From assembly GCA_964387845.1 (NCBI GenBank), contig CAYLXA010000001.1, positions 290,627 to 354,626 of the forward strand: a stretch of 64,000 nt of DNA, given 5' to 3'. Below the pieces are notes generated by a model, which saw only the letters and a list, made by a program, of their open reading frames with translations, was not told where the DNA came from and ran no database searches. This DNA is from an uncultured bacterium. GTDB lineage: Bacteria > Omnitrophota > Omnitrophia > Omnitrophales > Abzuiibacteriaceae. Positions 7,613 to 54,627 of the stretch are shown here, in pieces; position 1 is the first letter of the stretch, and every line of letters starts with the position of its first letter. Position numbers and translations under genes: made by a program.

Positions 7613-7674
7613 TATGAATTCCTCCGTTATCGAATCCTTAAGCTACCTTACTAAGCCGCTTAGGAGCTTTATTG

Positions 7675-7925: not shown

Positions 7926-8134
7926 CTTCATTTCACTGTTGGATGTTTCGAACAAGCATTAATTATGATTCCGTTACTTTCATCCGCGACTCTGCGATTT
8001 TGATCGCTCATCGCTTCCAATCGTTCATTGAATTTTTCATCAAAGAACTTTAACTGCCGAGTGAAGAGAATTTTATGCGAGAAATAATTCAGTGTCAACA
8101 ACAAAAATATTTTTTTTTAAAATCTCGCACAAAA

Positions 8135-12493: not shown

Positions 12494-12584
12494 CCCTCTC
12501 CCTTTGGGAGAGGGCTAGGGTGAGGGATTTCTATAAATCCCACCACCCTCATCCTAACCTTCTCCCTCTAAAGAGGGAGAAGGG
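12494..12584. repeat. REP-like nested-hairpin element (family 1: CCCTCTCCC-N3/4-GGGAGAGGG plus GGGTGAGGG arms), copy 1
   Basis: CCCTCTCCCTTTGGGAGAGGG, GGGTGAGGGATTT..AAATCCCACCACCC, CTCCCTCTAAAGAGGGAG. It overlaps the last 9 codons (IPSPSLEGEG*) of the class IV aminotransferase gene. Confidence 0.6.
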
Positions 12585-25400: not shown

Positions 25401-28400
25401 AATAATCACGCAATCTTTTGTAATACAAAATTCCGGGCGCAATATTGAGCCGCGTGCTGATCAAAAAAGTTCCTGGCGCGATAATTCCCATCAAAATAAA
25501 AAACAAGGCAGCATTTGAAATGAGAGGATAAATGGTAAAAACGCCGAACCCGACCAGAAACGCGAAAGCGGTCGGCGCCACCCAAGCATAAATGGGCCTT
25601 GGCGGCTTTCTAAGGCCTTTCAAAATGCGTGGATTCATCGTGACAATGTCGAGAGCATCTGCAATGCTGATCCCGAGTGCGCGCCGCACTTTGGCAATTT
25701 CGGAAATTTTCATGCGGCTCAGGCGCGTGGCTTTCATAAATTTCTGAACCGCCATGAGTTTGTCAAAAGCGTCTTTTTTAAGACTGTCCCGCACCGCTTT
25801 GTCTTCGGAAAGCCTGCGCATAGCTTCTTGATTTGAGGCTGACCAGACTACGGCAATAACTTCTTCCGTTTTTTTCCGCTGGTCAGGCGAAAGTTTATCC
25901 AAAAACTTAAGCACATTGACGAGATCGCCGTCTTTAACGGACACGTTGTACAGAATTTCTTCAAAAAAGTACCGCAAATTCCGGTTTGGACTTGGAAAAT
26001 ATTCGAGCAACTTTTCAAGTTTCGCGATTGCGCGCGGAGGATAGCTCATTTTCTGCGCAACGGGATTTTCATTAATTTCAGCGAGAATGGTTTCGATAAA
26101 TTTTGGATATGCGCGGAGCTCGGATCGCTGCTCATCGGTTTTTTTTGCGATTGCCCTCCTTTCAGACTTATGCTGAAACCACCACATTCCTCCAAAAAGA
26201 AGCAGAAGCGGCGGGATCAAGGAAGCATTGTCCGTAAGCCAGGCAACGGGCCCGGTCACAACAAGAACAAGCGAGGCTGTAATTGCCTTAAGAAAATATT
26301 GTTTCCGGAACTTAAACCACCACGTTTTATACTGAGTCGGAAAAATCTTAACGCGGTTCGATGGTTGAATTAAATCCGTTACATAACCAATCACTTCACC
26401 TTTTGGGAAAGCATACTCCAAAGGCTCGACCGGATACCCATAAACGTCTAAATATTGTTTTTGGGAAGGATCGGCATATTCGATCGATACAAGCTCGGGC
26501 TGTTTGCCGGATTTCTTAACATAATCGACAAGCCTCTTAGGCCCTTGATTGAGCGGATAAGCAAAATAAAGAACTGATTTAAATCCGCATGCCCGGGCAT
26601 AGTTCTCGATGATTTTTTGAATTCCCTTCGCCTTTGCATCAAAAATTCGCCCCTCCACACCGTCCACAAATAAAATCGGCTGTTCTTTTCCGTCTTGATC
26701 CTTATAAATCGCGGCGGCGATTCTGGCCCGTACCCGGCGGCCTTCGCGCGTACGGAAATCAATCGCTGAAATACTTTTGTTGTGCAAATAATTAAACGGG
26801 CCCAGCGCACCTTTTGTTCTCCGGTTTAATTTGTCAAGCCACGTGTTGCCGCGAAGCGACGCCGAAGAAAAGAAATCCTTTTGATTGGTTAAATCAAACC
26901 ACGGATCGCGCCGCCAAATCCGGGCTTCTACAATTGAGTCCGGTAAATTTCCCCAATCGTCAATCTTGGAGATACTTTTCTGAAGGTATTGATTGGCCTT
27001 CGCGGCATTGGGGTTTACATATTGGCCCAGCTCTTGCAGCAACTTTTTTCCTTCCTCGACAGGCAATTCACCTCTTTTATTCCTGGCCAATTCTTCTTTG
27101 TGCGCATTGAAAAATTGAGTGACCGACTTCTTACCCTCCTTTAAATTGGGCGTGTACTGTCCGGGCTTAAACTGGCGGTCTTCGGTTGAACCCAAAAAAT
27201 CCCTGAGTATTTTCTGGATAAACTCGGGGATGGTTTGATTTTCCGCGTCTTCGAATTCCCCTGCCGGTACTTTTTCAATATTATCCCCGCGAATTTGATA
27301 ATAGACTTTGTAATCCGGATTATCCCAATTTTCGTTGATGCCGACCGATTTGAGACGCTCCATGGTTTGAATCGCTGCCTCGGTCTGGTCAAACCATTGC
27401 CGGTAACTTCGCCGCTTAAGCATGGAGGCCAGATCCAACGCGGAAATTGTTTTCCACGAAAAAATGAACATTCGTTTCGCAAATACCGCCAAAATGTAAA
27501 CCAAGGCTGTGAAACCTGACGCCACAAACAAGCTTTCAATCCATCCTGCGGGATCAGAATTGTTGATCATTTCCCTAATATTTAAGCTTGCTAAATTTCC
27601 ATCCATCCAAAAAGAAATAGCGGAATAGAAAATTGTGAGCGCTGCGCGTTGAACCGAAGCATAGAAATATCCAATAACGCCAGTGAAGGAAACCGCGAGA
27701 AGATGCAGCCACGGGTTCTGAATGAGCGCCGTACGGGCGTGCGCAATCCGTGCGCGTTCTAATTTTTCTTCGTTAATTTTGTTCAAGTCAATCTTTAAAC
27801 TTTTAAACTTTTTCCACAAAAATTTCAGCTCCGGGAAACCGTCTTTCTCCATCCGCTCGTCGATTTCGGCAATGGTGAGATCTGAATTCTCACGCAGTTC
27901 ACTGGCTGCCTTTGGATTTTTGCTTTTTCCGTTTCCGGAAAAAGCGTTGCGCGTCAGAACACCGATCGTTTTAAACACCAGCGCGGTGTTATAAAGTGCC
28001 GACCGGTCCCGGATATCGTTTAACTCCAGCTCTATGTCATGCGTGTCCATGCCAAACTTTCCGGTTCCGATACCCCGCTTTAGAGCGCTTGAGCTGAGAA
28101 AACCCGGCTTGGTGTGATGTAAAACACTTTCGATATAATTTTGATCAACTTCCAAAGGTAAGCGCGGCCTTGGCCCAAACCATTGCATGTCACCGCGGAC
28201 AATCGACAAGAGCTGCGGAAGCTCATCAAGCCCCGTTCTGCGCAAAAACCATTCGTAAGGCGTAATGCTTTCATCTGAAATGTTGAAATCAAGTTTCATG
28301 GTTTTAATTTTTCGTATCACAATCGTCTTGCCCTGAAAACCGATTCGCTCTTGAATAAAAAACATGGGGCCGCTTGTGATAATTTTCCGGATAAAGGCAA

Positions 28401-31332
28401 GCAAATAAACCAGCGGAAGAGTTAAAACCCACAAAACGAGCGCTGTGATTCTCCCTGCCGCCTCGGACAGATCAGGTTTCTTTGCCGCGGGAAGCGATAA
28501 AGCATTGGTTTCCTTCAAGCGCAATTCCGAGCGCGCTTTATCGATGTCGTTCGATTGAGAAGCCGAAGTCGGTATTTCTCCGGTTGGGTGATTGCTGCTT
28601 ACCGCATTTGCTTTTCCTTTTGAATGCAAATAAAAGGTGCCGACGGCGGATGTTAAATGTCCCAATCCGGCCAGAAGCACAACCTCGTTTGAATCTTTTC
28701 TGGATCCAAGATACGCGGTTTCTGCCATAAAAGATCCTCTGTCTTTTGCTTTGTCGTTGGGATGTGTCAAATAATCAGGGGCGAATAACTGGTGCGACTC
28801 GATAGATTTCAACCATTTGGTAAAAAGCAGAATGAGAGAAACCACAAGAAACCACGGTGCAAAAAATGCAGCTATTAAACTATCCCGAAGCGAATCCCCA
28901 TGATCAAATATTTCACTGCCAACCTGCAATTTGTAAAGCAGGCGAAAATTTCGCTCGTGAAAAAATGGGATGCCTTCTCTCGCTAAGAAATAAGATAACT
29001 CCCGTACTTTTTTCTTGTTTAGCAGCATAAATTCAGAACCATGCACAATGCCAATCACATGAAAAGTACGCCCGCCGATTTTGACCATCTTACCGGAAAA
29101 ACCAAAGCGTTCCGCAATCGGCGAATCTTGAAATTGCGCCATGGTTTCAGAAGCCGCCTTTCGCCAAATTGGAGTAGCGAAGTCTGAAAATACTCGGCGG
29201 TGATAACCGATATTTTTGCCTAAAAGACCGGCTTTTTTAAATTTCTGAAACAATTCGATGGGTTTTGATGATTCAATCATCCAAGTTCCGATAGTCCTTT
29301 CTGAAATTTTTAATTCACCCGCTCGATCCCAAAATTGTTTCTCAGACGGGTAACGTAAAACATTGATCAATAGCGGGAGGATAAACTTTTGAACAAAATC
29401 AGCGTAGGTAAAATTGAAACTTAAGAGAACCACATTCGCCAAAAGCCACGTGATAAAAATACTAATGGGAAAGCCAAACCGTGAAAGACTTAGCTGCATA
29501 AGTGCCTGTTTAATGCTTGATAAAAAATGAGCTGCGAGTGGATAGGTTTTGGGGAATAGAAGCATTAAAATCAAGGATCCCGACATTGCGGCTATCCCGT
29601 AAAATAAAAATGGAATAGCTTTCATCCCGATTTTTAATAGATGCTTCCGCTTTGCATCCGGGCTCCCGTTCTTGAGTCTAGATTCAGCATGAATGACATC
29701 CCCGGTTACCCGCAATTCCGACCGAGGCGCGGTTGGCGACAAGTGCAATTCCGAGCGCGGCTCTGCGCTTGCGGCAAACTCGTCAGGAATGACCGGCGAT
29801 TCCAATAAGATATCCGATACATAATCGGCAGCAGTGCGGCGAACAACCGGGTCGGAATCACCAGCAGCAATAGCCATAACGGAAACAGCGCGCCAGTCGT
29901 GGTGGCGCGTTTGGTACAAGTAATCAAGTAAATTCAGAAGTTTGATTTTAAATTTTTGGAGATGCGGGTTTGGGGTGCTTGATCCCGATTGAAGTTCCAG
30001 AGCTTCTGAAAATGTGGCAAACAAAATATCGGGCGATACTTCATACAAAGAAAATTTTGAGTCGTAAGCCAGCAAATGTTCAATTCGGTCGATGATTGCA
30101 AAATTTCCACTTTGATATGCATTATAGAAATTGATCATGATTTGGCCCGCAACAATTCGCTGAACTAATTTTGAAACTTCCCCGCCCGTTACTTTAAAAT
30201 AATATTTTTTTCTGGCTTTGAGCCCATCCAATTCGAATAACTCCCGCAGATTTTCTTCCACTTCCCTCTTGATTCTTTCAAATTCTATCCTTTTTTCAGA
30301 AAGAACATCTTCGAGCGGTTTTTGAGCGGCTTCCAAATTTTCCGTGGCTGGTATTTTCAGCTTTGGTTCTTTTTGGCCGGGCTGAGTAGAAAACTGAGAA
30401 CACCCGACCGAAGCTAGTCCGATTAAAGAGAACAACTGAATCAATTTCAATATTTTGAATGCGCGCAGCTCTGAGGATTGAGATATTTTTGTGTAAACTT
30501 GAAAACTGGAGGAGCTATCCGGATGGATCTTGACTGTAACGCGTGAAAAATCGGGAGATGAAAAATAAGGCATCAATTCATGCTCAACGCCATAGTTGAC
30601 CAATTTTCCGCCGGCTTTGAGATTTCTTTTGATCGTACTGGCTAGCCGCGCACGATTAGCTGTGCCATAACTATAATAATAGACAATATCAGCTTGCTGC
30701 AAAAGCGCGGTCCAGCGCGTGTCATTAAAATCTCCGCGCAAAAATTCTACTTGGCCTTTTTTGATAATCCCGCGCTCCTCGGCCACAGAAAGTAACCGGA
30801 GACTGTCTGCGTAGAGATCCGGATCATATTCGATGCCGGTGATTTTTAAATTCGGATAACGGTGAGCAAGCATCAATGCATAAGCGCCCTGGCCATGGCC
30901 CAAGTCCACCATGGTAACCGGCTGGTCATGCGGGATCGGAAATTTTTCGACCGTTGCATTTATCGAATCAAGCCGGGTCTGTAGGTGAACGCCTTTTTCC
31001 GTGCGCCGGAGCTGAGCTGAGCTAAAATCAACTCCGGAATTTCGGAACAAAAGGCCGAGCACTTCCCTTGGATCCCTGGCCAATTCGACTGCTCGCAATT
31101 CCGAGCGCGGCTGAGTGTTTAATTTAACTGTGCCGCGGGCGATGGTGGGTAAATCCAGATCCAGAATACCGCCATGCTGATTGGCTAAGCGATGGACTCC
31201 GACGGTGGTGAAATTATTTTTGAAGGATTCCGCGATCACAGACGAATCGCCGTAAGCGATCGTGCTGGTAACTGAAAAGGTAAGGACAAGTGTCAGAGCA
31301 ACACTTTTTAAAAGATATGAGTTTAACTTCAC
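13405..31332 (-). CDS. Giant 5975-aa multi-module protein. In order: signal peptide, SAM-dependent methyltransferase, lipoprotein-like signal, TM-rich regions, PglC/WbaP-type bacterial sugar transferase, PPDK/PEP-synthase-like ATP-grasp plus phosphohistidine module, histidine phosphatase (RHG), HPr-like domain. Modules are separated by recurring RSELR motifs.
   Basis: One uninterrupted 17,928-nt ORF, GTG start at 31332, N-terminus MKLNSYLLKSVALTLVLTFSVTSTIAYG. MTase motif I MVDLGHGQGAYAL ... LRGDF. Sugar transferase SGPMFFIQERIGFQGKTIVIRKIKTM ... DELPQLLSIVRGDMQWFGPRP. PPDK_N-like RSGSAFMLPGLLATVSNVGMND and mobile-His region GHGVSGGAIRG ... TISVHAETLAQKEG. Histidine phosphatase LYVIRHGETH ... 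EIFQGEWEG. HPr-like NRQGVHASPAMFIVEMA. Confidence 0.7.
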   Translation of the reverse strand: MKLNSYLLKSVALTLVLTFSVTSTIAYGDSSVIAESFKNNFTTVGVHRLANQHGGILDLDLPTIARGTVKLNTQPRSELRAVELARDPREVLGLLFRNSGVDFSSAQLRRTEKGVHLQTRLDSINATVEKFPIPHDQPVTMVDLGHGQGAYALMLAHRYPNLKITGIEYDPDLYADSLRLLSVAEERGIIKKGQVEFLRGDFNDTRWTALLQQADIVYYYSYGTANRARLASTIKRNLKAGGKLVNYGVEHELMPYFSSPDFSRVTVKIHPDSSSSFQVYTKISQSSELRAFKILKLIQLFSLIGLASVGCSQFSTQPGQKEPKLKIPATENLEAAQKPLEDVLSEKRIEFERIKREVEENLRELFELDGLKARKKYYFKVTGGEVSKLVQRIVAGQIMINFYNAYQSGNFAIIDRIEHLLAYDSKFSLYEVSPDILFATFSEALELQSGSSTPNPHLQKFKIKLLNLLDYLYQTRHHDWRAVSVMAIAAGDSDPVVRRTAADYVSDILLESPVIPDEFAASAEPRSELHLSPTAPRSELRVTGDVIHAESRLKNGSPDAKRKHLLKIGMKAIPFLFYGIAAMSGSLILMLLFPKTYPLAAHFLSSIKQALMQLSLSRFGFPISIFITWLLANVVLLSFNFTYADFVQKFILPLLINVLRYPSEKQFWDRAGELKISERTIGTWMIESSKPIELFQKFKKAGLLGKNIGYHRRVFSDFATPIWRKAASETMAQFQDSPIAERFGFSGKMVKIGGRTFHVIGIVHGSEFMLLNKKKVRELSYFLAREGIPFFHERNFRLLYKLQVGSEIFDHGDSLRDSLIAAFFAPWFLVVSLILLFTKWLKSIESHQLFAPDYLTHPNDKAKDRGSFMAETAYLGSRKDSNEVVLLAGLGHLTSAVGTFYLHSKGKANAVSSNHPTGEIPTSASQSNDIDKARSELRLKETNALSLPAAKKPDLSEAAGRITALVLWVLTLPLVYLLAFIRKIITSGPMFFIQERIGFQGKTIVIRKIKTMKLDFNISDESITPYEWFLRRTGLDELPQLLSIVRGDMQWFGPRPRLPLEVDQNYIESVLHHTKPGFLSSSALKRGIGTGKFGMDTHDIELELNDIRDRSALYNTALVFKTIGVLTRNAFSGNGKSKNPKAASELRENSDLTIAEIDERMEKDGFPELKFLWKKFKSLKIDLNKINEEKLERARIAHARTALIQNPWLHLLAVSFTGVIGYFYASVQRAALTIFYSAISFWMDGNLASLNIREMINNSDPAGWIESLFVASGFTALVYILAVFAKRMFIFSWKTISALDLASMLKRRSYRQWFDQTEAAIQTMERLKSVGINENWDNPDYKVYYQIRGDNIEKVPAGEFEDAENQTIPEFIQKILRDFLGSTEDRQFKPGQYTPNLKEGKKSVTQFFNAHKEELARNKRGELPVEEGKKLLQELGQYVNPNAAKANQYLQKSISKIDDWGNLPDSIVEARIWRRDPWFDLTNQKDFFSSASLRGNTWLDKLNRRTKGALGPFNYLHNKSISAIDFRTREGRRVRARIAAAIYKDQDGKEQPILFVDGVEGRIFDAKAKGIQKIIENYARACGFKSVLYFAYPLNQGPKRLVDYVKKSGKQPELVSIEYADPSQKQYLDVYGYPVEPLEYAFPKGEVIGYVTDLIQPSNRVKIFPTQYKTWWFKFRKQYFLKAITASLVLVVTGPVAWLTDNASLIPPLLLLFGGMWWFQHKSERRAIAKKTDEQRSELRAYPKFIETILAEINENPVAQKMSYPPRAIAKLEKLLEYFPSPNRNLRYFFEEILYNVSVKDGDLVNVLKFLDKLSPDQRKKTEEVIAVVWSASNQEAMRRLSEDKAVRDSLKKDAFDKLMAVQKFMKATRLSRMKISEIAKVRRALGISIADALDIVTMNPRILKGLRKPPRPIYAWVAPTAFAFLVGFGVFTIYPLISNAALFFILMGIIAPGTFLISTRLNIAPGILYYKRLRDYLSERLRKTGHVSAIEKKMQAIGINVSEFEKGRVYENKEKGIRIRIHDKKTLKGAIDFLTSSEAIGNCISLQHFVSWILPSLLSDDGIILADIDHKGSGDAYQHRAQMWMIASEDNGDPVLTVNSFEFNNDGAKYFDELMPEAIQILQDVARRSGFKKIYAGITNYGRDYLDQHYSQGASRNTIKKIHDPEAGFQYHFDAFRYRWLARDFVLKKSRSFTERAYAIIFGLFELTKGNRAKARAFFDSARNARNFWEIPLQGQTAAPQSELLRSELRNQTAQAVNTDPVQTLHALIISKLSVKNIKRFFTVDVLKEFLETQNLNAQGIIKALRGKITLNTSQANQILNLIREFRLLNPDSPSFDVVEWFWVSYWPKLKYLVEKASLNDLNRLEAVETFNQVLRPLSPDFDAAFSFGHKDLISIYDIGKIGTKIADDILIPRGLIVDIVNGSGLLVGKIIKRESQRSAAGRFVPVYTVRLKSRDGKSDSYLSAFAKDRHIVIIEGTDVPSIENFDYYQNLKKLYETGQYQFPNFDQSPVAYLRDWIQMHFYSLGDYGYVAQLYRSGVLEEELSHSDAYVFANEFYKGENDYSTSLYWINVMKAILRPGSLLAHALGGYEGDQQGLLAHAYFEVEAKLNELIRSSYPAQILFPYLNPVLPVSDAMRAALDQEDPLYKVAFVQLLMLLSDEFFGEMTIEPKQWLDFLKKEITDLDRFNRKIREAAKRAYEKQFFTLEERRQILKNRSELRQTAAVTQRSKVDQVMDVIRDLMDQAGSPNKIYDSLTEGDILEALTFLLSPHDSNRFWPRSGSEDRRIYWSKVLPEGFSNRELRELGVELRREWENRGLDKKFGNLNQFLATLIDPYFKDLDEFEKFAGRLDHLLAGGLEDLFYAYWTLGLTQVIHLRPTGLHIEEFDGKEIKKPSDNELLADYVKRFISVVSAWPEERLADIPPSTRKFSQSYPGFTYRNLMLWALSVMLDQDVHDWKFGYRSTDLGVKIFSLKYGARFWPDDTKRRTGKQSMTEYLSRMLTDVPELDQNGVETGRKISNEKIEKLVAEVLSRNESDWVRLGFRSPWDVSEVQASMLIRTIGDRSKNPLRDAVLTLPLPNLQDPELNVGINTSAPVYLKYAPLPRHLIFPTQAAFIHRRKEAVRRRLFFGEPFRTLFPNLKTLTAQKRSELRSDGRTNPMSYKEFEKALRDYQTLMKLSFGRGGKHLSFEQNQAVGARKEAIIDLLKKNSKEHLQNLIREFILKADLPLDKKQSYLWYVSSAMSPDRYRMTDAFFKEHLIPIYLSKTNSPEENRIFLELAAAYFNEHYIKADIHHDLEATFRQASPDDLGKLIHLLLHLRTIGHEFFRELISILLSVSPADPLAAAFVAAQGLVRDIPSEGRKRIEYPQMSLYLLHQPNARAAYFYLMKVIEAERKGGVSTDNSQDRIISYSRRLDNNASYPGEFGRGWFSHFRDGIHRNLNRSDFENTRRVLAYWLTLDESILKESNWTLLRDDMTKDFNPATLQTYSKLLNRFVKALAAKGKISKSDPEAFLDEILDIPEREVVAIYEEANRDEDVSEIDYERVQLMTQLYLAFADHFGTRVATIVPFLKGETEDLRDGGYLKKKMTAITRFMREDYDRLLMLIDSDDHAAIFSAIVKVQNDLKEFLLSGEENQKKVLGQAEKSIGRDGEDSADEDADDIDQEWNDMHEEGDYLYDLRTLVEMSEKLSILASEKIAHVQEKIEKINSVDDLRRELPNLIALGRFIQASGLGGVDFDQLMVELDSGSIKASQLYDLVHTLEAEVHKITRQLNNTMRAAMQYSLDEVGYHDLAKLWREHTSLFKIKTKTEDDQTYQIYDFPPEGKERLEAAVIDELIRNSGATAFDRALMKFDAVLASALSQGQDEAIREDAGAERPDDFEQHLYRFGENETDERPELLSLWSKKGLNLIRMTHERIPVPPGVILSAKLVTKPDIFRSDEFRQKIAAEIERLKRYSEYPDLKLILYARSGSAFMLPGLLATVSNVGMNDAEAEALAQKSGDAWFAYDTYAEFIRSFSINVLGIPEAEFEQVLNVKEKEDLSADGMKAVVEQCKAIVARHGKIIPNDMMDQVMMAVEAVYASWDSEEARAYRTRHQISQEWGTVVILQKGVFGNLKPTDDGKISGAGHAVLRTLPDGHDVLQGKFRFHSIGDQLMSRAGQNYILIGNGERIRPDEQTFEALQPELYAQVFEYARKLKNIFRYNQQFEFTIERGKIWIVQSNDDFVTDQYPEFADSTDNQPIARGHGVSGGAIRGLAANSIEAAEKLLGELVSHPRADVDGVILILDRVNPEMINRIPKGVHILAKTISVHAETLAQKEGISAVYGVPDMVFQPEKHLWLIAGRDIADGDVISMDGHENPLLYHQSGNVYLGSVAIKSRAIRSELRNSEAESAAPKTMLLDAGHDAIRAALQDSDLSFKQLKKLLYLTNRILQAEPWCIHFRELAIPFLTGLLGNKSRAERFADHFSFHQLESAKDALSALGLPDEVILILQELQESPSAPADHENVSSKGARAELRQIVLGYLQGSSAHIRTDVLHGLNSETDWRLARKLYGQLNHFLESHRAGIAIAPLFKMLNAQVFIARSIVRRNGDHLGGVTYHSLHPVLSNVKSIFLSLYAGDHPISYDGPVSDEFLKVRDKDFTYLERLLTHELAETLVEHNQYALPINFERLEHFANKNLPLSIVNIPHDKTAVYQIAKRIYETRLQALERQFGKKKQVLDYSQEEIETQFLSRYSIVSAREFFFEAQSLYWLDPDFVRKHDPVMFQFLSALVYWENGKLVVPTSAIQPDLLMKARVELRKNVSETLQQMGFWVNQSTGQLFYKEPYFPPALDLDLYVIRHGETHIIAEGLRTGRKRFQGSGMDNEGAQLTPKGRVQAQADAEKLFEKFKDQITANPDQFVVIINPLGRVRDTAEPFIRLVREKLGIELKVMIDPDTKEIFQGEWEGLTNEQIKAQFGREQFKAARSYQKWSVLAKPEHGESFAHLIIRAAAFWKRMNEQYRGKTVILFNHAAFSGALQVLKKDMRVVHPEGHIDWRRAGLKTGEITHFTDDYFRAQRAEVLRRDEAHQVHGVRGKNISNEVGTRPTHVYRRWEGWIPVPPKSEQPPREKSGVRSELRNDLENEEPIELPFAVDQSHHSTDLARLEVELHNAELAGDLDTIEEVTARIQAVRAARRGPFQSFPRPPKHRSELRNYTVIGISAGAIGIGVGALLYYSLIKPRRIALDEQQLRIKILLSRTEVLLNRFSSFILSVSDRGNSLAAEANDYYLRILPELRKAKSALKGMKEEHGLLLKEEEEWLAQTSQAIDSYEAFLDHQINEYKKSVTPTDRNMSELREGESNSIEINVTVKNRQGVHASPAMFIVEMAQAALAKNVSVKIKNLNKGSAEWIEADNPMALMTLEAVKDTRLAFQFEFKTDEERISAERFAVAFHELVEVRLFGEDGGELGGSEAFVDEMFKISETELAERFQKLTEPMPGPDAGSQKSELRSVQKLLRNLSHPNFTIRKTRADELGKGNEVGLETLLQYLAEPVIPVDEWKPLIEVAPKNFNPDMLRQSARFAALYVLNWWIERDTGFYIPVLKAVLNQEKSSWTAQSETDINRIYEQNSSNPLGANQPLSLIQIMKLFRRWYSELQMKNRSLTLSENERRSFRHAKYIHRAVRILEEIADREVPVIDAQFYEQAGVKSLTSEHRNFTIAQKTIGSRYDVSIHLEGEINKELLPESLQKIKPIDFQSAIEKSILNQADAFNNTEIGDKVQSEVLGLPLIMAKVQSEVSGETVFNFRVIAKTEKTIAKGRVEVKENPLFRDLQTEIAPVARSEMRRIVSNARSFDNQIVTALQNRSEMREGKVFTRNAFFGEKGSLAVVGRNLSDVYGSYMVIVTNRAELRVIDEINATIANPKNRIVPVEDYHKARAELRNLGLSMAIIGVSDDAVAVPFLEKIADKVIIWNQAFVDHVLSAAAYLVGKFRAQMQVFYSA

Positions 31333-31458: not shown

Positions 31459-32952
31459 TTATCTGTTGGAAAGGGCTTCGACAAGCGCTTTTCCCTTGTG
31501 AAGCGTCTCTTGATACTCTGCGGCGGGTTTTGAATCATGCACAATACCGGCGCCGACTTGGAAGTAACCCTTTTGCTGATTAATCACGATTGTGCGGATC
31601 ACAATGTTGAGATCCAGATCACCATCAAAACCAAAATAGCCAATGGAGCCGGTATAAATCCCGCGTTTGAAAGGTTCCAGCTCTTCGATAATTTCCATAC
31701 AGCGAATCTTTGGGCATCCCGTGATAGTTCCGCCCGGGAACATCGCGCGTACCAAATCAAATTGATCCGCATCATCACGAAGCTCGCCCTTTACGTTTGA
31801 GACAATGTGCACAACGTGTGAATATTCCTCAAGCGCCATCATCTCGCTCACGCGCACCGTGTGCGGCTTGCACACGCGCCCCAAATCATTGCGTTCCAGA
31901 TCTACTAGCATAATGTGCTCGGCGCGCTCTTTATCATTTGAGATAAGTTCACTGCGCAGTTTCTGATTTTGCACTGCCGTTTTCCCGCGCGGCCGGGTCC
32001 CTGCAATCGGGCGCGTTTCGCACGCACTTCCCCGCTTTTTGATGAGGCGCTCCGGCGAAGAGCTAATCACCTGCAAATCGCCGAGACGAAAGAAACTGGA
32101 AAAAGGTGACGGATTGATATCCCGCAAACGTTCATAGAGTTTCTCAGAACTTCCTGAGAAATCAAACGAGAACCGCTGTGAAAGATTGGCTTGATAAATA
32201 TCGCCTGCCTCTATGTAATCTTTGCCTTTTTTGACAATCGCTTCGAATTTTGATTTTTGAATATCAGATTTAAAATTCTGAATTTGTATTTGTCCATTTT
32301 GATAAAGCGTTTGATTGAGTTTCGAGAGAGTCTCTTGAATCCAATTTTGACTTTCACTTAGCTGATCCTCAAAACTCTTTCTCTCGGAAGGCATTAAATT
32401 GCTGATGAGATAAATCGCTTTCTTTGATTCATCGTAAGCGATCAAATTTCGGATGAATAGGAAAACAGCTTCATCCAGTTTTTGGTCATTCTTCGCCCGG
32501 TTGGGCAGGCGTTCAAAATCCCACGCCAAATCATAGGAAAAATAACCAACCGCGCCGCCTAAAAATTCAGGGCCGGCGTTCCATTTTCTTCCGCGATAAG
32601 TTTTAAAGAGCTTGCGCATTTCCAGAAGAAAATCACCGCGTTTTTTTACGACCCTCACCCTGCCCTCTCCCTCAGGGAGAGGGAAACGCGAAGCGTGGGT
32701 GAGGGATTTTTCGATCGAAATATTTTTACCCTGCTTTCGCAAGATTAAAAACGGGTCGCTGGCCATATAGGAAAATGTACCGGTTTTCTGGTGAAAGCGC
32801 GCGCTATCCAGGATAAACGAATTTTCGGAAGACTGGATCCTGCGGAAAGTTTCCCAGGAACTCAACGAAGCGGGGATTTTTTGGATCAGCGGAACAATGA
32901 AGCCTTTTTGGAAATATTTTCGAAGTGTCGTGATGGGCAGAACGTTATTCAT
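31459..32952 (-). CDS. Chorismate-utilising enzyme, anthranilate/para-aminobenzoate synthase component I family (PabB/TrpE-like), carrying an in-frame REP insertion
   Basis: GDIYQANLSQRFSF, PERLIKKRGSACETRPIAGTRPRG, PGGTITGCPKIRCMEIIEELEP, GAGIVHDSKPAAEYQETLHKGKAL. No trpG/trpD adjacent. The PabC-like gene and folC are nearby. Confidence 0.8.
   Translation of the reverse strand: MNNVLPITTLRKYFQKGFIVPLIQKIPASLSSWETFRRIQSSENSFILDSARFHQKTGTFSYMASDPFLILRKQGKNISIEKSLTHASRFPLPEGEGRVRVVKKRGDFLLEMRKLFKTYRGRKWNAGPEFLGGAVGYFSYDLAWDFERLPNRAKNDQKLDEAVFLFIRNLIAYDESKKAIYLISNLMPSERKSFEDQLSESQNWIQETLSKLNQTLYQNGQIQIQNFKSDIQKSKFEAIVKKGKDYIEAGDIYQANLSQRFSFDFSGSSEKLYERLRDINPSPFSSFFRLGDLQVISSSPERLIKKRGSACETRPIAGTRPRGKTAVQNQKLRSELISNDKERAEHIMLVDLERNDLGRVCKPHTVRVSEMMALEEYSHVVHIVSNVKGELRDDADQFDLVRAMFPGGTITGCPKIRCMEIIEELEPFKRGIYTGSIGYFGFDGDLDLNIVIRTIVINQQKGYFQVGAGIVHDSKPAAEYQETLHKGKALVEALSNR
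32650..32705. repeat. REP-like family 1, copy 2, translated in-frame inside the PabB-like gene
   Basis: CCCTCACCCTGCCCTCTCCCTCAGGGAGAGGGAAACGCGAAGCGTGGGTGAGGG encodes ...SRFPLPEGEGRVRVVKKRG... within the ORF. Confidence 0.6.
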
Positions 32953-35361: not shown

Positions 35362-36471
35362 TTGGGAAAGATTAAAATAGCAGTCGTCGGTGTCGGGAAT
35401 TGCTGCGCTTCCCTGGTCCAGGGAATCGAGTTCTACCGCCATCAAAACGGCACCATTGCCAAGAGCCGTGAGCATCTGGGTTTGATGCATTATAACCTAG
35501 GCGGCTACTTACCGGAAGACATCGAAATCGTCGCTGCGTTTGATATCGATAAACGTAAGGTCGGTGAACGCCTTGATGTCGCGCTAAAAGCCAAGCCCAA
35601 TAATGTGCTCGAGCTTTTCGGCGATATTCCCCGCAGCCGTGTCGTGGTTCAAATGGGAACCGTGTTGGATGGGTATTCGGAACACATGTCAGAATATCCT
35701 GTTGATCGCACATTTGTCCTCGCGAAACAAAAACCTGCCAATGTAGAACGCGTTCTGAAAGAGAGCGGCGCTGAAATTCTTTTGAATTATTTACCGGTTG
35801 GATCCGAGGAAGCCACACAATTCTACGCGGAAGCTTGCCTCAAAACGGGCGTGAGCTTCATTAATTGCATGCCTTCCTTTATTGTTTCAGATCCCAAATG
35901 GTCAAAGCGTTTTGAAGATAAGCGAATTCCCGTGATTGGCGATGATATTAAGGCTCAGCTGGGTGCTACAATTGTTCACCGCACGCTTGCGAAATTGTTT
36001 GCAGACCGCGGCGTCAAGATTGACCGCACCTATCAATTAAATACCGGCGGCAACACTGACTTTTTGAATATGCTCAACCGCAAACGCCTGGCATCCAAGC
36101 GCATTTCAAAGACGGAAGCCGTCCAAAGCCAGCTCGAAATTCCGCTGGATGAGGAAAATATTCACATCGGGCCTTCGGATTATGTCGCGTGGCAGAACGA
36201 CAACAAAGTTTGTTATTTGCGCATGGAAGGCCGCGGATTTGCCGGTTTCCCGGTGAATGTCGAACTCAGGCTTTCTGTGGAAGATTCCCCCAATAGCGCC
36301 GGTGTCGCGATCGATGCGATCCGCTGCTGCAAGCTCGCGCGTGAACGCAATATCGGCGGGCCGCTCGTTTCAATTTCAGCTTACGCGATGAAACATCCGC
36401 CGAAACAACTTCCCGATACCCAAGCCCGTGAACTCGTCGAAAAGTTCATCCAAGGCACTTGCCAGCGCTAA
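35362..36471 (+). CDS. myo-Inositol-1-phosphate synthase (inositol-3-phosphate synthase), bacterial/archaeal short type
   Basis: N-terminus (M)GKIKIAVVGVGNCCASLVQGIEFY matches the characteristic MIPS Rossmann start. 369 aa. TTG start with GGGAGAG SD-like 5 nt upstream. Only sizeable plus-strand gene in the window. Confidence 0.75.
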   Translation: MGKIKIAVVGVGNCCASLVQGIEFYRHQNGTIAKSREHLGLMHYNLGGYLPEDIEIVAAFDIDKRKVGERLDVALKAKPNNVLELFGDIPRSRVVVQMGTVLDGYSEHMSEYPVDRTFVLAKQKPANVERVLKESGAEILLNYLPVGSEEATQFYAEACLKTGVSFINCMPSFIVSDPKWSKRFEDKRIPVIGDDIKAQLGATIVHRTLAKLFADRGVKIDRTYQLNTGGNTDFLNMLNRKRLASKRISKTEAVQSQLEIPLDEENIHIGPSDYVAWQNDNKVCYLRMEGRGFAGFPVNVELRLSVEDSPNSAGVAIDAIRCCKLARERNIGGPLVSISAYAMKHPPKQLPDTQARELVEKFIQGTCQR

Positions 36472-36751: not shown

Positions 36752-37291
36752 CTACCCAATCTTCCCGGGCCGATGCGGATCCATCTCAAAACCAATCGCA
36801 TCCGTAGTCGGCGGCGCCAAAAGCGGCCTAATCATTTTGAACAATCTCTGCAAAGCTCTGTCGTGATCGAGCAGAACCTTCTCAATTTCATCCAATCGTC
36901 CGTGCAGAATTTGATTCAGGTTGAAAACTTCTCTCAATCTCACAAAAGCACGGATCACGTAAACGCTCATACGGACAGCTCGGTCACTGTTTAAAATGTT
37001 GGCTGCCATTAACGCCCCGTGTTCTGTGAAAGCAAAAGGAAGATACCGATCGCCACCCCGACCCTCTTTCTTTGAGGTCACAATCTGTGACCTCAAAAAT
37101 TCTGCTTCCTCCAGAGTAAGCTGAAACATGAAATCTGCCGGAAAACGGCTTCGGTTACGTTTGACAGCTTGATTGAATGCTTTTGTGCTCACCCCATAAA
37201 GCTCCGCTAAGTCACGGTCAAGAATAACGCTCTGACTCCGGATGATGAGAACACGATTTTCTACAGCTAATTTAGGACCTCTTTTAGACAT
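36752..37291 (-). CDS. ORF6N / KilA-N-family DNA-binding-domain protein (family seen on phages and mobile elements)
   Basis: MSKRGPKLAVENRVLIIRSQSVILDRDLAELYGVSTKAFNQAVKRNRSRFPADFMFQLTLEEAEFLRSQIVTSKKEGRGGDRYLPFAFTEHGALMAANILNSDRAV is the typical ORF6N-domain signature (from memory). Confidence 0.55.
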   Translation of the reverse strand: MSKRGPKLAVENRVLIIRSQSVILDRDLAELYGVSTKAFNQAVKRNRSRFPADFMFQLTLEEAEFLRSQIVTSKKEGRGGDRYLPFAFTEHGALMAANILNSDRAVRMSVYVIRAFVRLREVFNLNQILHGRLDEIEKVLLDHDRALQRLFKMIRPLLAPPTTDAIGFEMDPHRPGKIG

Positions 37292-37444
37292 GAAACACCC
37301 CTCTTATTGGTTTTAAATGGAGGGGGGATTTTAATTTTGTTTTTTACTGCGGGAGATATGGAATTATATATAACTTTTACGATTAATCAACACTCAACTT
37401 CTAGCCTGTCCCCTTAGAAGGTGCCTGGCACTTTTTTTATGAGA

Positions 37445-38113
37445 TCAAATGACCCCTTTCATTAATGTTTCTTTAACTTTCTTGGCATTTTTTAGTCCTT
37501 CGTCAATCAAAGAAATAAAATACTCAATTTCTCCATTTAAAGTACTAGGATAAAAATCTCCAACCCGACAGCATCCTTCACAAATTCCATCCATAGCTTG
37601 AACGTAAGCGGTTTCAGCAAATGTAAGCCATTCACGCGTTTCATTCCATGTTTCCTTCCCATCATGAGTACGCCAGGGGAAATTATGAACACGTTGAATA
37701 TTCCGATGAGGATTTATCTTGTCACTAATATCTTTTATTTTTTCCTCGTACTCATCAAAATGAGATAAAAACTCTTTTCGTTGTTGTTTTAACCTATCTT
37801 TTGAGAAAGTCTGTCTTTCTAATTTTAGTTCAATATTTTCTTCTGAAACTTCTTTGCTTTTTTGCATTAAATTCCATAAACTAGCTTCACTAGAACGACC
37901 AAAAATCTTTCCTAAAGCGAGAATGTACTTTGTTTCCAAAGCATCTCGAATAAAGCTGAATAAGCCACCAAATTCTCGTTCAAATCCTTCTGATTGAACA
38001 AGCCCGTTATTCCATTTGAATAATAAAGCATGGAAAATGTTAGCCTCGCAAAGATCTCTGCTTACACAGGTTTCTATTACCTTCAGTGAATCTTGAACTT
38101 CATCCATCATCAA
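37445..38113 (-). CDS. Hypothetical protein encoded by a markedly AT-rich gene; contains a possible HEPN-like Rx4-6H motif (RNIQRVH)
   Basis: 222-aa ORF. Local GC visibly lower than flanks (long A/T runs). No recognisable family. Lies between the ORF6N gene and a GC-rich repeat cluster. Confidence 0.45.
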   Translation of the reverse strand: MMMDEVQDSLKVIETCVSRDLCEANIFHALLFKWNNGLVQSEGFEREFGGLFSFIRDALETKYILALGKIFGRSSEASLWNLMQKSKEVSEENIELKLERQTFSKDRLKQQRKEFLSHFDEYEEKIKDISDKINPHRNIQRVHNFPWRTHDGKETWNETREWLTFAETAYVQAMDGICEGCCRVGDFYPSTLNGEIEYFISLIDEGLKNAKKVKETLMKGVI

Positions 38114-38195
38114 CCTCCAATAAATTCATGATTCTGTACCAATTATAAAAGCATTCATATTTTATGCCCCCAATTCGCAGAAGACAACCTGGTTC

Positions 38196-38290
38196 TCGAA
38201 ATAGAACGCCCTCACCCCCTCCGGGCCTAAGGCCCGATAGGGCCGGAGGCTCACCCTACCCCTCTCCCAAAGGGAGAGGGAAAAACAAAG
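38196..38290. repeat. REP-like family 1, copy 3, plus extra GC hairpins
   Basis: CCCTCTCCCAAAGGGAGAGGG and CCTCCGGGCCTAAGGCCCGATAGGGCCGGAGG. The 38164..38448 plus-strand ORF in the track is a spurious translation of this repeat DNA. Confidence 0.55.
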
Positions 38291-38319
38291 GAAGAATCTG
38301 GCTTTGTGGAGGCGGCTCT

Positions 38320-38405
38320 CGGAATCCTTCAGAGCTTGGTCCCCCACCGTTTTGTTTCGCAAAGCGAGGCAGCGGGGGTCTGAAGGATGAGAGCGCAGGC
38401 GGTCG
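38320..38405. repeat. GC-rich roughly 90-bp element, copy B (see 34950-35050)
   Basis: Direct-orientation duplicate. Together the two copies bracket the ino1, ORF6N and AT-rich gene segment. Confidence 0.5.
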
Positions 38406-38455
38406 AGCCCGCGGGAGGCGAGAACCGCCGGCGCCGGAACAAAGCTAGATTCTGA

Positions 38456-39337
38456 CTAAATTAGTGCTAATCCGATTAATTTGTAAATAAGGCGCGCGAC
38501 GAGGAAATTGGGGGCGTGAAGCTTTTCTATCGGTGATAATTCCATGACATCAAAACCAACAATTTTTCGTGACTTGGCGATTTCCCTAAAAAGCGCCATG
38601 GCTTCATGCCACAAAAGACCGTTGGGTTCCGGTGTTCCGGTTGCGGGCATAATCGAAGGGTCAAAACCATCTACATCGATCGTAATATAAACTTCATCCG
38701 TTAAATTGGTCAGCGCGGTGTGAATCCAATCTTGAATTGCCATCTTTTTGATTTCGTGCGCGTATAAAATGTTTACGTTTTGCTTCTTGGCGACCCTGAT
38801 TTGATCCGGTGAAATGCTGCGGATACCGACTTGCGAAAGCGGGCACTTTCCTGCAATGCGCGCCGCAATTGAGGCGTGCGAATAAGGCGTTCCCTCATAA
38901 GAATCGCGCAAATCCGCGTGAGCGTCGATCTGCAGAACGGACATTTTGGGATATTTCTTCAAGTGTGATTTGATTAACGCGCTTGAAATAGAATGTTCAC
39001 CGCCGATTCCGACCAGGAATTTATTTTCCGAGAGAATTTCATCCGATCGCTTTTCCAATCTTTCGATAAATTGCTTCGGGTCTTTTTCCTTTGCGGCAGG
39101 TTTGAAGCTTGGAAGTGTCGCAATCGATACCTTTTTACATGTTTCAACACCCAATTCCTCATCGTAATACTCCACATAACGAGAAGCATCAATAACAGCT
39201 TTGGGGCCGCGGGATGTGCCTTTTCCGTAAGAGACCGTTCCTTCATAAGGAACCGGCAAAACAGCAACTTTGGATTTGGTGTAAGCGGGTTCGGGATCCT
39301 GGCCTAAAAAGTTAAATGGGGCTTTTTCGTGCTGCAT
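38456..39337 (-). CDS. speB: Agmatinase (ureohydrolase / arginase family)
   Basis: GGEHSIS, DAHADLRDSYEG, ITIDVDGFDPS Mn-binding motifs of the arginase fold. Adjacent to the pyruvoyl arginine decarboxylase. Confidence 0.7.
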   Translation of the reverse strand: MQHEKAPFNFLGQDPEPAYTKSKVAVLPVPYEGTVSYGKGTSRGPKAVIDASRYVEYYDEELGVETCKKVSIATLPSFKPAAKEKDPKQFIERLEKRSDEILSENKFLVGIGGEHSISSALIKSHLKKYPKMSVLQIDAHADLRDSYEGTPYSHASIAARIAGKCPLSQVGIRSISPDQIRVAKKQNVNILYAHEIKKMAIQDWIHTALTNLTDEVYITIDVDGFDPSIMPATGTPEPNGLLWHEAMALFREIAKSRKIVGFDVMELSPIEKLHAPNFLVARLIYKLIGLALI

Positions 39338-49576: not shown

Positions 49577-52312
49577 TTAACCTGTGCTTTTCATGCCAAA
49601 AGCAATGCCATTTAGGGCTAATAAAAGCACGTCTTTTATCTGATTCTGGCGGACAGCACTTTGGTTTGTGCTCTTTTTTGATTCTTCTAAAAACCGGACT
49701 TGAAGAAAATTCAAGGGATCAACGTACGGATTCCGCAAACGAATTGACTCTTTGAGAACCGGATGAAACCCCAATAAGTCGTCTTGCCCGGTAATTTCAA
49801 GAATTTGATCACAGCTCCGCGCATACTCTTCTTTGATCCGGCCGAAAATCTCAGACCGCACGGCCTCGGAATCCACCAAAGCAGAATACCGTTCGGCAAT
49901 ATACATATCCGCTTTTGCGAGAGATACGCGCGCATTGTCAATCAACATATGAAAAAAGGGCCATTTTTGGTACATTTCGCGAAGTTCGGCCAAACCTTTT
50001 TTGCCTGACTGCTTGATCTCCGCTTCAAGTGCATAGCCGATCCCATACCAGGCCGGTAAAATAAACCTCGACTGAACCCAGCTGAATACCCACGGAATCG
50101 CGCGCAGATCTTGAAATTCCCGCGAACGCTTGCGCGATGCCGGCCGTGAGCCGATCTGCGCAATCCCAAAAAGCTGAATAGGTGTTGCGGAATAAAAGAA
50201 TTCTTTAAAACCGGGCGAATCAAAAACCAAATCGCGATAAAATCTGAGCGATGTTTGGCATAGTTCTTCCATCTTTTTCTCCCATTCGGCAATTTTACGG
50301 CTTCTTGCCCATTCATGCTTGCCGACTAAATTGGTCCAAATGACGGCAGTCGCCAGCTGCTCCAAATTTCTTTGCGCAATCATCAGGTTGGCATACTTCT
50401 GCGAAACGACTTCGCCCTGCTCCGTAATCCTGATCTTTCCGCCCACCGCCGCATACGGCTGCGCCAAAATGGCTTTATGCGACTGTCCGCCTCCGCGGTC
50501 GATGGTGCCGCCTTTGCCGTGGAAAAACCGGACGGCGACATTAAATTTCTCGGCCATTTCGACCATCCGCTTCTGTGCAAGGTACAACTTCCAATTCGCC
50601 GCAAAATATCCGCCGTCTTTGTTGCTATCCGAATAGCCGAACATGATTTCCTGCAAATTGCCTTGGCTTTGCACATAGGAACGGTAAAGCGGAAGTGAAA
50701 AAAGTTTTTGCATAATCAAATGAGCTTCTGCTAGCGATTCGATTTTTTCAAAAAGCGGCACAATCGCCAGACAGCTTTCAACGACTTTTTTGCCTTTAAC
50801 TTTGATTAAGCCCGCACGAACCGCCAAATACATAAACCCAAGAATATCTTCGGGCTTTTCAGCCATGCTTAATAAATAATTCTTCACATAAGAGCGGCCC
50901 ATTTTTTCCTGAATTTCTTTGATGAGCTCAAGCTGCCGGATGATATCTTTGGATTCGGCGGATAGCCGGCGCGCTTTTTTAAACTGCGCGTTTTTCTTCG
51001 TGATTGCGCCAATCAATTGCCCGGCGGTTGGTTCAAATCCGAAAAGCTCCTTGACCGCATGCATGATTTTCCGGCTGTCGTCCCGGAAATCCAAAGCGGC
51101 CAAATGAAAACCGAATACGCGCACCTGGCAAATTAAATTTTCTAAATCACCCGCCACCGCAAACCGGCCTTTGTTCTTCTGCAGACTTTCTTGAATAATC
51201 AAAAGATCCGCCAAGAATTCATCCGGCGATTGATACTGAACGGATTTTTGCTGATACGTGTTTGAAAGTTTTCGGTGAATAAAAGAAAGTTTTTTTCGAT
51301 AGAGTTCGCTCGACTCATATTTGTCGAGTTCGGAAGCCAACTTGGGCATCAAGCGGCGGTCGTTGGCAAGCGAAGCCAAAAAGGAACGCCCGGCGCCGAT
51401 CATTTGGTCTGATTGGCTGAATTTCAGCATCAGCGCTTCGCAAGCGTTCAGGTAGAGCGTAAAAATAAGCTCTCGGTGGCGCCTTGCGGTTTCTTCGGTC
51501 ACCTGGCAAGTCACATTGGGATTACCGTCGCGGTCGGCACCGACCCAGGAGCCAAAACGCACCAGCGGCAAATCGCTGATTTTTCCCGTTGATTCATAAA
51601 ATTCATCATGACTTTTTTGAACGATTCGATGAAAAGCCGGAATCAGGGGGAAAATGGTTTTCTCAAAGAAAAAGAGAGTTTGGTCCACTTCATCCAAAAC
51701 CGAAACTTTTTTCGTGCGGGTTGGTTTTGTCTGCCATAAAATTTCGAGCAATTCCTTGATCTTTAATGTATGAGTTTCCTTTTCGAAATTGGTAGCGTCC
51801 GGGTGATTGATTTGAGACAAGCTCGACGCGATTTCTAGAATATGGCTCAGAATGGTCCGCCGTTTGACTTCGGTCGGGTGCGCCGTTAAAACCAATTCGA
51901 TATCCAAGCGATTGACAAGCCGGCTGACTTTTCGCTCGGAAATTTTTCGCTTAGACAAATCATGAAATAGTTTCCGGACCGACATATGCTGCAGCTGATT
52001 GTGCTTATCATATGCGCGTAGGCGGCGGATTCTTTCTGCTTCTTCGGCGATATTCGCGAGCTGAAAATAAATGGTGAATGCGCGCGCGATTTTGTACGCT
52101 TCCGGCACACTGAGTGATTGAATCAGCCGCCTTTTTTTGGCAATGAACGCCGGCGCATGGCTCTTCCGGATTTGCTTCGCAAAATGCCGGATTTTCTCGA
52201 TCTTATTTAATAACGCAACCCCCTCCTGATCCCGGATCACATCGCCCAGAATTTTTCCGAGAAACCGGACATCCTGCCGCAATAGACTGTTTGACATGTT
52301 TTTATTTCTCAT
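49577..52312 (-). CDS. ppc: Phosphoenolpyruvate carboxylase
   Basis: VLTAHPTE, FHGKGGTIDRGGG, and the C-terminal ...MKSTG ending typical of PEPC. 911 aa. Confidence 0.9.
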   Translation of the reverse strand: MRNKNMSNSLLRQDVRFLGKILGDVIRDQEGVALLNKIEKIRHFAKQIRKSHAPAFIAKKRRLIQSLSVPEAYKIARAFTIYFQLANIAEEAERIRRLRAYDKHNQLQHMSVRKLFHDLSKRKISERKVSRLVNRLDIELVLTAHPTEVKRRTILSHILEIASSLSQINHPDATNFEKETHTLKIKELLEILWQTKPTRTKKVSVLDEVDQTLFFFEKTIFPLIPAFHRIVQKSHDEFYESTGKISDLPLVRFGSWVGADRDGNPNVTCQVTEETARRHRELIFTLYLNACEALMLKFSQSDQMIGAGRSFLASLANDRRLMPKLASELDKYESSELYRKKLSFIHRKLSNTYQQKSVQYQSPDEFLADLLIIQESLQKNKGRFAVAGDLENLICQVRVFGFHLAALDFRDDSRKIMHAVKELFGFEPTAGQLIGAITKKNAQFKKARRLSAESKDIIRQLELIKEIQEKMGRSYVKNYLLSMAEKPEDILGFMYLAVRAGLIKVKGKKVVESCLAIVPLFEKIESLAEAHLIMQKLFSLPLYRSYVQSQGNLQEIMFGYSDSNKDGGYFAANWKLYLAQKRMVEMAEKFNVAVRFFHGKGGTIDRGGGQSHKAILAQPYAAVGGKIRITEQGEVVSQKYANLMIAQRNLEQLATAVIWTNLVGKHEWARSRKIAEWEKKMEELCQTSLRFYRDLVFDSPGFKEFFYSATPIQLFGIAQIGSRPASRKRSREFQDLRAIPWVFSWVQSRFILPAWYGIGYALEAEIKQSGKKGLAELREMYQKWPFFHMLIDNARVSLAKADMYIAERYSALVDSEAVRSEIFGRIKEEYARSCDQILEITGQDDLLGFHPVLKESIRLRNPYVDPLNFLQVRFLEESKKSTNQSAVRQNQIKDVLLLALNGIAFGMKSTG

Positions 52313-53409: not shown

Positions 53410-53412
53410 TAT

Positions 53413-54531: not shown

Positions 54532-54627
54532 TGTTACCCTGTCATGATTTTTAGATTACCACGGCACAAGCCGCACAATTTATCAAATGCGCGGCGCGTC
54601 GTTACTAAAGCAAGCTTCTCAAAAAAT

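Follow-up and report, generated by a model that had tools for sequence, protein, structure and literature searches.

A stand-alone HEPN_AbiU2-family gene in a replaceable slot of an Omnitrophota genome, a candidate phage-defence or conflict RNase

What is the single AT-rich gene that sits between an agmatinase-family gene and an ORF6N gene in an uncultured bacterium of the Omnitrophota, and is it a defence gene? The gene lies in a window of 64,000 nucleotides (GenBank assembly GCA_964387845.1, contig CAYLXA010000001.1, positions 290,627 to 354,626 of the forward strand), and coordinates below are counted from the first letter of that window. A first-pass annotation, made from the letters, had described the gene as an orphan of no recognisable family, with a possible HEPN-like motif and an ORF6N neighbour, and had proposed a defence or abortive-infection effector. 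That description holds in part: the gene, its AT-richness, the motif and the neighbour were all found as described, and the orphan status was not. The gene is a member of a rare, divergent subgroup of the known HEPN_AbiU2 family, and it is foreign AT-rich cargo in a replaceable slot. We lean towards the reading that it encodes a horizontally acquired, stand-alone HEPN_AbiU2 protein, a predicted RNase whose role would be that of a phage-defence or abortive-infection effector, or more broadly that of a conflict toxin. The gene and its motif are as follows.

37445..38113, minus strand: HEPN_AbiU2-family coding sequence; a single open reading frame (ORF) fills the interval exactly and encodes a stand-alone protein.
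37682..37705, minus strand: R137-N-I-Q-R-V-H143-N144, the predicted HEPN active-site motif (R-[NDH]-x4-H-N), placed by conservation and by its position in the structural model.

The protein matches Pfam family PF18734 (HEPN_AbiU2) at 30.7 bits (E 2.7e-7), above the family's gathering cut-off of 26.8 bits, with residues 27-138 aligned to profile positions 21-128 of 193. Pfam arrives independently at a family type that the first-pass annotation had named, which supports its HEPN-like reading and removes the claim that no family could be recognised. The gene is not an orphan either. A single-sequence search returned 14 relatives among 5.8 billion cluster representatives, a profile search returned 29 relatives at the 90%-identity cluster level, and an exhaustive HMMER search returned 45 hits among 1.84 billion representatives at 50% identity. 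Most of these relatives come from uncultured lineages, and the named sources are Candidatus Omnitrophota and Aminicenantes metagenome-assembled genomes. PF18734 is matched independently by 27 of the 44 aligned full-length members (E <= 0.01), the best at E 1.4e-11, and in three distant members (P0055, P0069 and P0071) the match crosses the motif region and extends to profile positions 145-172. NCBIfam holds no model for the protein, PHROGs gave only noise, and sequence and profile searches of solved structures gave no meaningful match.

The motif which had drawn attention to the gene, PHRNIQRVH, is present as R137-x5-H143. The motif alone is uninformative, because about 0.8 Rx4-6H motifs are expected by chance in a protein of such composition, and this protein has two (R112-x5-H118 and R137-x5-H143). 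Its conservation, however, exceeds chance. Across an alignment of 44 sequences, with identities down to 17% and a mean column identity of 32%, both R137 and H143 are kept in all 44, and only L79 joins them as an invariant column. Loss of this Arg and His among homologues had been named beforehand as a reason to abandon the HEPN idea, and no such loss was found. The residue after the Arg, position 138, is N in 41 sequences, D in two and H in one. Position 144 is N and position 69 is K, each in 42/44. Of the 44 sequences, 43 show Rx5H spacing and the remaining one Rx6H. Position 60, within the helix at 44-70, is E in 25 and D in 10 (35/44 acidic), and by sequence position it would be the acidic residue of helix 2. 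In a closer alignment of 14 sequences (39-63% identity), P135, R137, N138, Q140, R141, H143 and N144 are all invariant. Judged by alignment, the subgroup is well delimited, with the signature P-x-R-N-x-x-R-A-H-N-x-P.

Anantharaman et al. (2013, PMC3710099) described HEPN domains as carrying an Rx4-6H signature in which N, D or H follows the Arg, together with a second acidic residue in helix 2 and a variable insert between helices 2 and 3. At the level of sequence, every element of that definition can be found in the protein. AlphaFold, run with a 35-sequence alignment, gave an all-alpha model with a predicted local distance difference test score (pLDDT) of 90.6 and a predicted template modelling score (pTM) of 0.86. 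The model has helices at 2-39 and 44-70, a helical insert at 79-117, helices at 119-139 and 156-176, and an extra C-terminal helix at 190-221. R137 and N138 end the helix at 119-139, and H143 falls within the loop at 140-155. The element order of the model, read from predicted secondary structure, agrees with the HEPN description of PMC3710099, so the structure prediction that the first-pass annotation had proposed as a check did not turn up a non-HEPN fold. A first model, built from the 14-sequence alignment, was poor (pLDDT 67.3), and its Foldseek matches were meaningless; it was replaced by the 35-sequence model.

A sceptical reader could still take the protein for a generic helical bundle, with a weak Pfam match and a short motif that are both coincidental. 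The Pfam score is marginal, and Foldseek found nothing in the PDB at E <= 0.001 for the pLDDT-90.6 model, which both suit that view. A structural comparison listed 5yep_B, a HEPN toxin (9.2; 114/133; 8), 8xdj_A, also a HEPN toxin (9.0; 107/130; 11), and 3jrt_A, a HEPN protein from an integron cassette (8.7; 127/166; 34). The top structural HEPN matches are the HEPN-MNT toxins 5yep and 8xdj, at a sequence identity of just 9-12%. Against coincidence stand the independent Pfam matches of 27 relatives, the fact that the sole invariant polar residues are the Arg and His of the motif, with N, D or H after the Arg, and the placement of the motif at a helix end and loop start with a helical insert before that helix, as in HEPN domains. 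We regard a protein that is not HEPN at all as highly improbable.

The gene also stands out from its surroundings in composition. Its GC content is 0.345 and its GC content at third codon positions (GC3) is 0.256, as compared to a mean GC of 0.465 for the window, and GC 0.45-0.52 and GC3 0.47-0.56 for nine neighbouring genes including the ORF6N gene. The AT-richness first remarked upon is therefore real. The description of the product as rich in Lys, Glu and Asn was correct for Glu (11.7%) and Lys (8.6%), which are enriched, and not for Asn, which at 5% is unremarkable. The ORF is 222 amino acids long when counted from a TTG at 38113, and residue numbers here follow that count. Its start region reads GGAGG-TTGATG-ATG, an order which puts GGAGG 6 nt from the ATG at 38107, and a public protein of 220 amino acids (P0001) is 100% identical to the product read from that ATG. 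The ATG at 38107 is the probable start, giving a protein of 220 amino acids. A 45-amino-acid ORF called upstream at locus L001 proved to be a contig-end artefact; in the window, that place and frame hold no ORF of 40 amino acids or more.

The features around the gene, which define the slot, are listed here.

37372..38465, strand not assigned: variable segment (cassette slot), between the agmatinase gene and the ORF6N promoter, occupied here by a GC-rich repeat spacer and by the HEPN gene.
38160..38450, strand not assigned: GC-rich spacer (GC 0.56) between the agmatinase end and the start of the HEPN gene; it carries a REP-like hairpin.
38159..38187, minus strand: sigma-70-like promoter match TTGTCT-17-TAAAAT, 5' of the HEPN gene; a weak match from a consensus scan only, at 9/12 positions.
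36752..37291, minus strand: ORF6N gene (179 amino acids), PF10543 at E 7.7e-32, 153 bp downstream of the HEPN gene.
37363..37390, minus strand: sigma-70-like promoter match TTGATT-16-TATAAT, in the 153-bp gap before the ORF6N gene; found by consensus scan, at 10/12 positions.

To the left lies a myo-inositol-1-phosphate synthase gene (35362-36471, plus strand), and to the right are genes for an agmatinase/arginase-family protein, a pyruvoyl arginine decarboxylase, an ATP-grasp protein and succinyl-CoA synthetase. Related contigs, whose ORF6N protein is at least 90% identical, keep the order sucCD, ATP-grasp, PvlArgDC, arginase, X, ORF6N, Ino1P synthase, tRNA_bind, DUF1015, where X is the gene in the slot. 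When the window was compared by blastn with two such syntenic relatives (L026 and L027), homology was found at window positions 39331-38466 (75.6%) and 37371-35349 (83.2%), and none between. The slot of the relatives is filled by an unrelated gene X of 369-371 amino acids (L026 4718-5827; L027 929-2044), with GC 0.32 and GC3 0.27. The product of gene X carries hydrophobic segments and a region that weakly resembles CBM_4_9, and its C terminus holds a CPFC...CPYC zinc ribbon. No Pfam family reached its gathering cut-off with this protein, and PADLOC gave no family either. Because the backbone of the relatives aligns on either side with a different gene between, the HEPN gene is cargo in a replaceable slot. 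No direct repeats or terminal inverted repeats flank the breakpoints of the variable segment, and the window contains no tRNA gene and no Rfam family anywhere, and so no tRNA-linked integration site.

The hairpin in the spacer, at 38260-38280, reads CCCTCTCCC-AAA-GGGAGAGGG. The general form CCCTCTCCC-NNN-GGGAGAGGG has four copies in the window (12494-12514, 32663-32683, 38260-38280 and 56315-56335), with 0 expected by chance. The copies are usually bordered by CCCTCACCC or GGGTGAGGG, and a further copy is found in the relative L026 at 10186-10222. This dispersed GC-rich hairpin looks like an intergenic repeat of the repetitive extragenic palindromic (REP) type.

The adjacent ORF6N gene was correctly reported by the first-pass annotation, and raises the question of whether the two genes work together. 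Its product matches three models of PADLOC's PDC-S05 candidate at E 7.4e-49, 3e-45 and 1.6e-35. Relatives that lack the HEPN gene keep the ORF6N gene in unchanged position at 83% nucleotide identity, and with a GC3 of 0.47 it resembles the host in composition; it is a conserved backbone gene and lies outside the cassette. The promoter blocks TTGAT and TATATAAT before it are kept in the relative L026. Since the ORF6N gene has its own promoter-like site and that site is conserved in a relative, the sequence suggests that the two genes are transcribed separately. Within the ORF6N gene, at 37071-37097, is an inverted repeat with perfect arms of 12 nt around a loop of 3 nt, TTTGAGGTCACA-ATC-TGTGACCTCAAA, which encodes LRSQIVTSK and is 100% identical in L026, as compared to 83% for the DNA around it.

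The two genes could form a single system, in which the conserved ORF6N protein (KilA-N-like, PDC-S05-type) is a sensor or regulator for an exchangeable upstream effector. They share a strand and are 153 bp apart, the PDC-S05 match ties the neighbour to a type of which one representative protected E. coli from T7, T5 and T4, and the fact that relatives keep ORF6N while they swap the upstream gene for another AT-rich gene would suit a module with a constant and a variable part. PDC-S05, however, is defined as a single-gene candidate, no ORF6N neighbour was found at the other AbiU2-like loci, and the promoter-like site before ORF6N is its own. The GC3 values of 0.26 and 0.47 differ sharply, so the two genes did not arrive together. 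We think a two-gene system quite unlikely. A broader version, in which the interval between the agmatinase and ORF6N genes is a dedicated exchange site where AT-rich single-gene effectors are swapped, the HEPN RNase here and the 369-amino-acid membrane and zinc-ribbon protein in relatives, and the resident ORF6N DNA-binding protein serves as common sensor or regulator, is very unlikely in our estimate; if true, it would make the interval a modular system of one constant gene and one variable effector instead of two unrelated neighbours. The link between HEPN and ORF6N is local and probably coincidental. The ORF6N association proposed at first is found at this locus and nowhere else in the family, and the PDC-S05-type gene is an independent, older resident.

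The genes beside homologues of the HEPN gene differ from locus to locus. Scans of genome and metagenome contigs added one new context (L014), and the three other loci they returned were already in the set. The contexts are these.

L007: PLD protein matching DrmC models, a helix-turn-helix gene, and type I restriction-modification (R-M) HsdR/HsdM.
L002: SNF2/PLD helicase, MmeI-type methyltransferase and a T1RH-like_C protein.
L004: DUF1016/SNase protein matching PADLOC PDC-S02.
L012: DUF2971 protein matching PDC-S31.
L017: an MNT and an HSDR_N_2 gene, inserted in a run of genes for purine synthesis.
L020: NYN RNase gene and a 93-amino-acid unknown.
L003: DUF4411/PIN, CoiA_N, an RHH gene, and a 254-amino-acid protein with its own RNAFAH motif overlapping the start.
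L010: housekeeping genes only in view.
L014: genes for lipopolysaccharide glycosyltransferases, next to an IS200-like transposase.
L023: two unknown genes (162 and 184 amino acids) upstream and an HtrA-type protease gene downstream.

Defence-type genes are directly adjacent in 6 of about 12 independent contexts, the window included, a small sample with no formal background comparison. The six hold type I R-M with a DrmC-like PLD protein; an SNF2/PLD helicase with an MmeI-type methyltransferase; PDC-S02; PDC-S31; MNT with HSDR_N; and, in the window, PDC-S05. The expectation that homologues would adjoin defence genes was thus borne out, in that R-M genes, nucleases and candidate defence genes lie beside them on several independent contigs. 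"R-M operons" are also listed as an AbiU2 context in the 2013 survey (PMC3710099). In 7 of 10 loci the homologue is AT-richer than its own contig. Over the roughly 11 independent homologue contexts, no neighbour is conserved.

Two of these loci have features of their own. In L003, the 254-amino-acid gene (1667-2431) that overlaps the start of the AbiU2-like gene carries its RNAFAH motif (Rx4H) along with a weak match to a Cas13b HEPN region, and probably encodes a second HEPN protein. The pair recalls the survey's entry of Bxe_C0808 in an operon with AbiU2. In L017, an islet at 6382-8304 among purine-biosynthesis genes holds an MNT nucleotidyltransferase, a 53-amino-acid ORF, the AbiU2-like HEPN gene and a gene with an HSDR_N_2 nuclease domain, and it is another AbiU2-family mini-island inside a housekeeping cluster.

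HEPN RNases are well-known toxins of toxin-antitoxin modules. The gene could accordingly be the toxin of such an addiction module with no dedicated role against phage, its antitoxin being a small protein, an RNA or the ORF6N protein, and the cassette would then persist because its loss is harmful. The top structural matches, 5yep and 8xdj, are HEPN-MNT toxins, a related Vibrio mimicus cassette with an AbiU2 domain resisted cloning on its own, as would fit a toxic product, and of the distant relatives one (L017) lies beside an MNT-type gene and another (L003) beside an RHH gene. Several results oppose this. Nothing of the antitoxin type, MNT and RHH genes included, adjoins the gene in the window, no neighbour is constant across contexts, and ORF6N persists in relatives without the HEPN gene. 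The surroundings also lack a ToxI-like tandem repeat, the sole array being a trivial repeat of 11 nt x 2.6 inside the HEPN gene itself. On balance an addiction toxin is unlikely.

The predicted defence or conflict RNase remains the reading we favour, and the neighbourhoods support the effector proposed at the outset, as a prediction of role. By analogy with other HEPN proteins, we infer its RNase activity, dimerisation, trigger and phenotype. Dimerisation would join two Rx5H motifs into a composite, metal-independent RNase site. In that site H143 would activate the 2'-OH, R137 and N138 would stabilise the transition state or bind the backbone, and the conserved acidic E60 in helix 2 may assist catalysis. 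The enzyme would stay silent until a phage cue frees its activity, and once released it would cleave host or phage RNA and so halt phage production, either via abortive infection or by direct RNA targeting. The gene would operate as a single-gene cassette without a fixed partner.

A number of observations weigh against this account. The PF18734 score is only about 4 bits above threshold, and the match ends at N138 and so does not span the His. Model confidence is lowest in the motif loop (pLDDT 62-83), and the match to the HEPN architecture is one of predicted secondary structure and element order, not a residue-level superposition. No PADLOC model matches the protein. Searches of phage genomes, plasmids and IMG/VR contigs turned up no relative, and the idea of a phage- or plasmid-borne gene was rejected on that ground. 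Some homologues (L010 and L014) have housekeeping genes around them and no visible defence gene. No partner or sensor was found that could hold a toxic RNase silent. Finally, AbiUii (AbiU2) of Lactococcus confers no resistance itself: AbiUi alone gives modest resistance, and added AbiUii lowers it (review PMC13064643).

That last result also favours another view, namely that the protein is catalytically silent or regulatory, and binds RNA or modulates some other system in the way that AbiUii acts on AbiUi. Many HEPN domains are indeed non-catalytic binding modules (PMC3710099). Inactive HEPN domains, however, typically lack the Rx4-6H motif (PMC3710099), and here the Arg, the following N, D or H, and the His are kept subgroup-wide. 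Because these are invariant across the subgroup, selection on catalysis can be argued. There is also no adjacent AbiUi-like partner to be modulated. A silent or regulatory protein therefore seems improbable. A search of the literature found no demonstration of RNase activity for any AbiU2-type protein.

In kind, the result is ordinary: one more predicted HEPN RNase among small defence and toxin genes. Members of the subgroup belong for the most part to uncultured lineages such as Omnitrophota, in which hardly any defence gene has been put to the test. A compact, partner-less AbiU2 member of 220 amino acids, for which the model is confident, lends itself to experiment. The locus also offers a clean natural comparison of the same backbone with different cargo, in which single AT-rich genes are exchanged at a fixed site with no obvious integrase, tRNA gene or flanking repeats.

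Two further features of the window lie away from the slot. A giant ORF of 5,975 amino acids occupies 13405-31332 on the minus strand, and L026 and L027 have a gene of at least 3,804 amino acids at the matching place. The AT skew is strongly positive (0.24-0.27) at 53001-55000, far above the rest of the window, over the minus-strand genes at 52309-53409 and 53413-54531.

Four known systems can be set beside the locus. The likeness to PDC-S05, PADLOC's single-gene candidate of ORF6N/RhuM type, concerns the neighbouring ORF6N gene and not the HEPN gene. One PDC-S05 representative in E. coli lowered the plating of T7 and T5 by about 1000-fold and gave protection from T4 too. That tested representative has a Virulence_RhuM domain, whereas the neighbour in the window has the Pfam ORF6N domain.

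HEPN-MNT toxins are small helical RNases whose Rx4-6H site is formed in the dimer. The gene differs from those compared here (Shewanella SO_3166, PDB 5yep; the AMPylated HEPN toxin, PDB 8xdj) in having no adjacent MNT antitoxin gene: no NTP_transf_2 (MNT) gene adjoins it in the window, and only the distant relative L017 has one nearby. The protein is also about 90 residues longer, with its helical insert and extra C-terminal helix.

The Vibrio mimicus MB461 integron cassette HNPBCG_15845, which has a HEPN AbiU2 domain, was the one enriched among phage survivors, 94% of which carried it (bioRxiv 10.64898/2026.03.17.712381), and it offers an indirect precedent for a defence role. It could not be cloned alone, it protected E. 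coli from T4 and T7 when cloned with two other cassettes, and an abortive-infection mechanism was proposed for it. Its protection has been tested only jointly with those two cassettes. It resides in a sedentary chromosomal integron with attC sites, whereas no integron features were seen in the window, where no search was aimed at them. What the two share, likened by description only, is a single small AbiU2-type HEPN gene carried as a mobile cassette.

The closest comparison is with HEPN_AbiU2 (PF18734) itself, whose founder is AbiUii of Lactococcus lactis, only a predicted HEPN protein in its own right (PMC13064643). The lactococcal pairing of AbiUii with the nuclease-like AbiUi, the component that confers resistance, is not repeated here, as the gene's neighbours are agmatinase and ORF6N: the window locus has no AbiUi-like, Sel1-repeat or Bxe_C0808-type partner, neither the HEPN protein nor ORF6N matches a PADLOC AbiU model, and the 11 other contexts share no conserved partner. 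The Pfam match of the window protein spans only the first two thirds of the profile. Shared with the family are a small all-alpha protein, a conserved Rx4-6H motif with a polar residue after the Arg, and a bacterial setting in or beside R-M operons, as in the 2013 report and here in L002 and L007. Within the family, the subgroup of the window protein is set apart by its fixed Rx5H spacing and its extended form of the motif, P-x-R-N-x-x-R-A-H-N-x-P.
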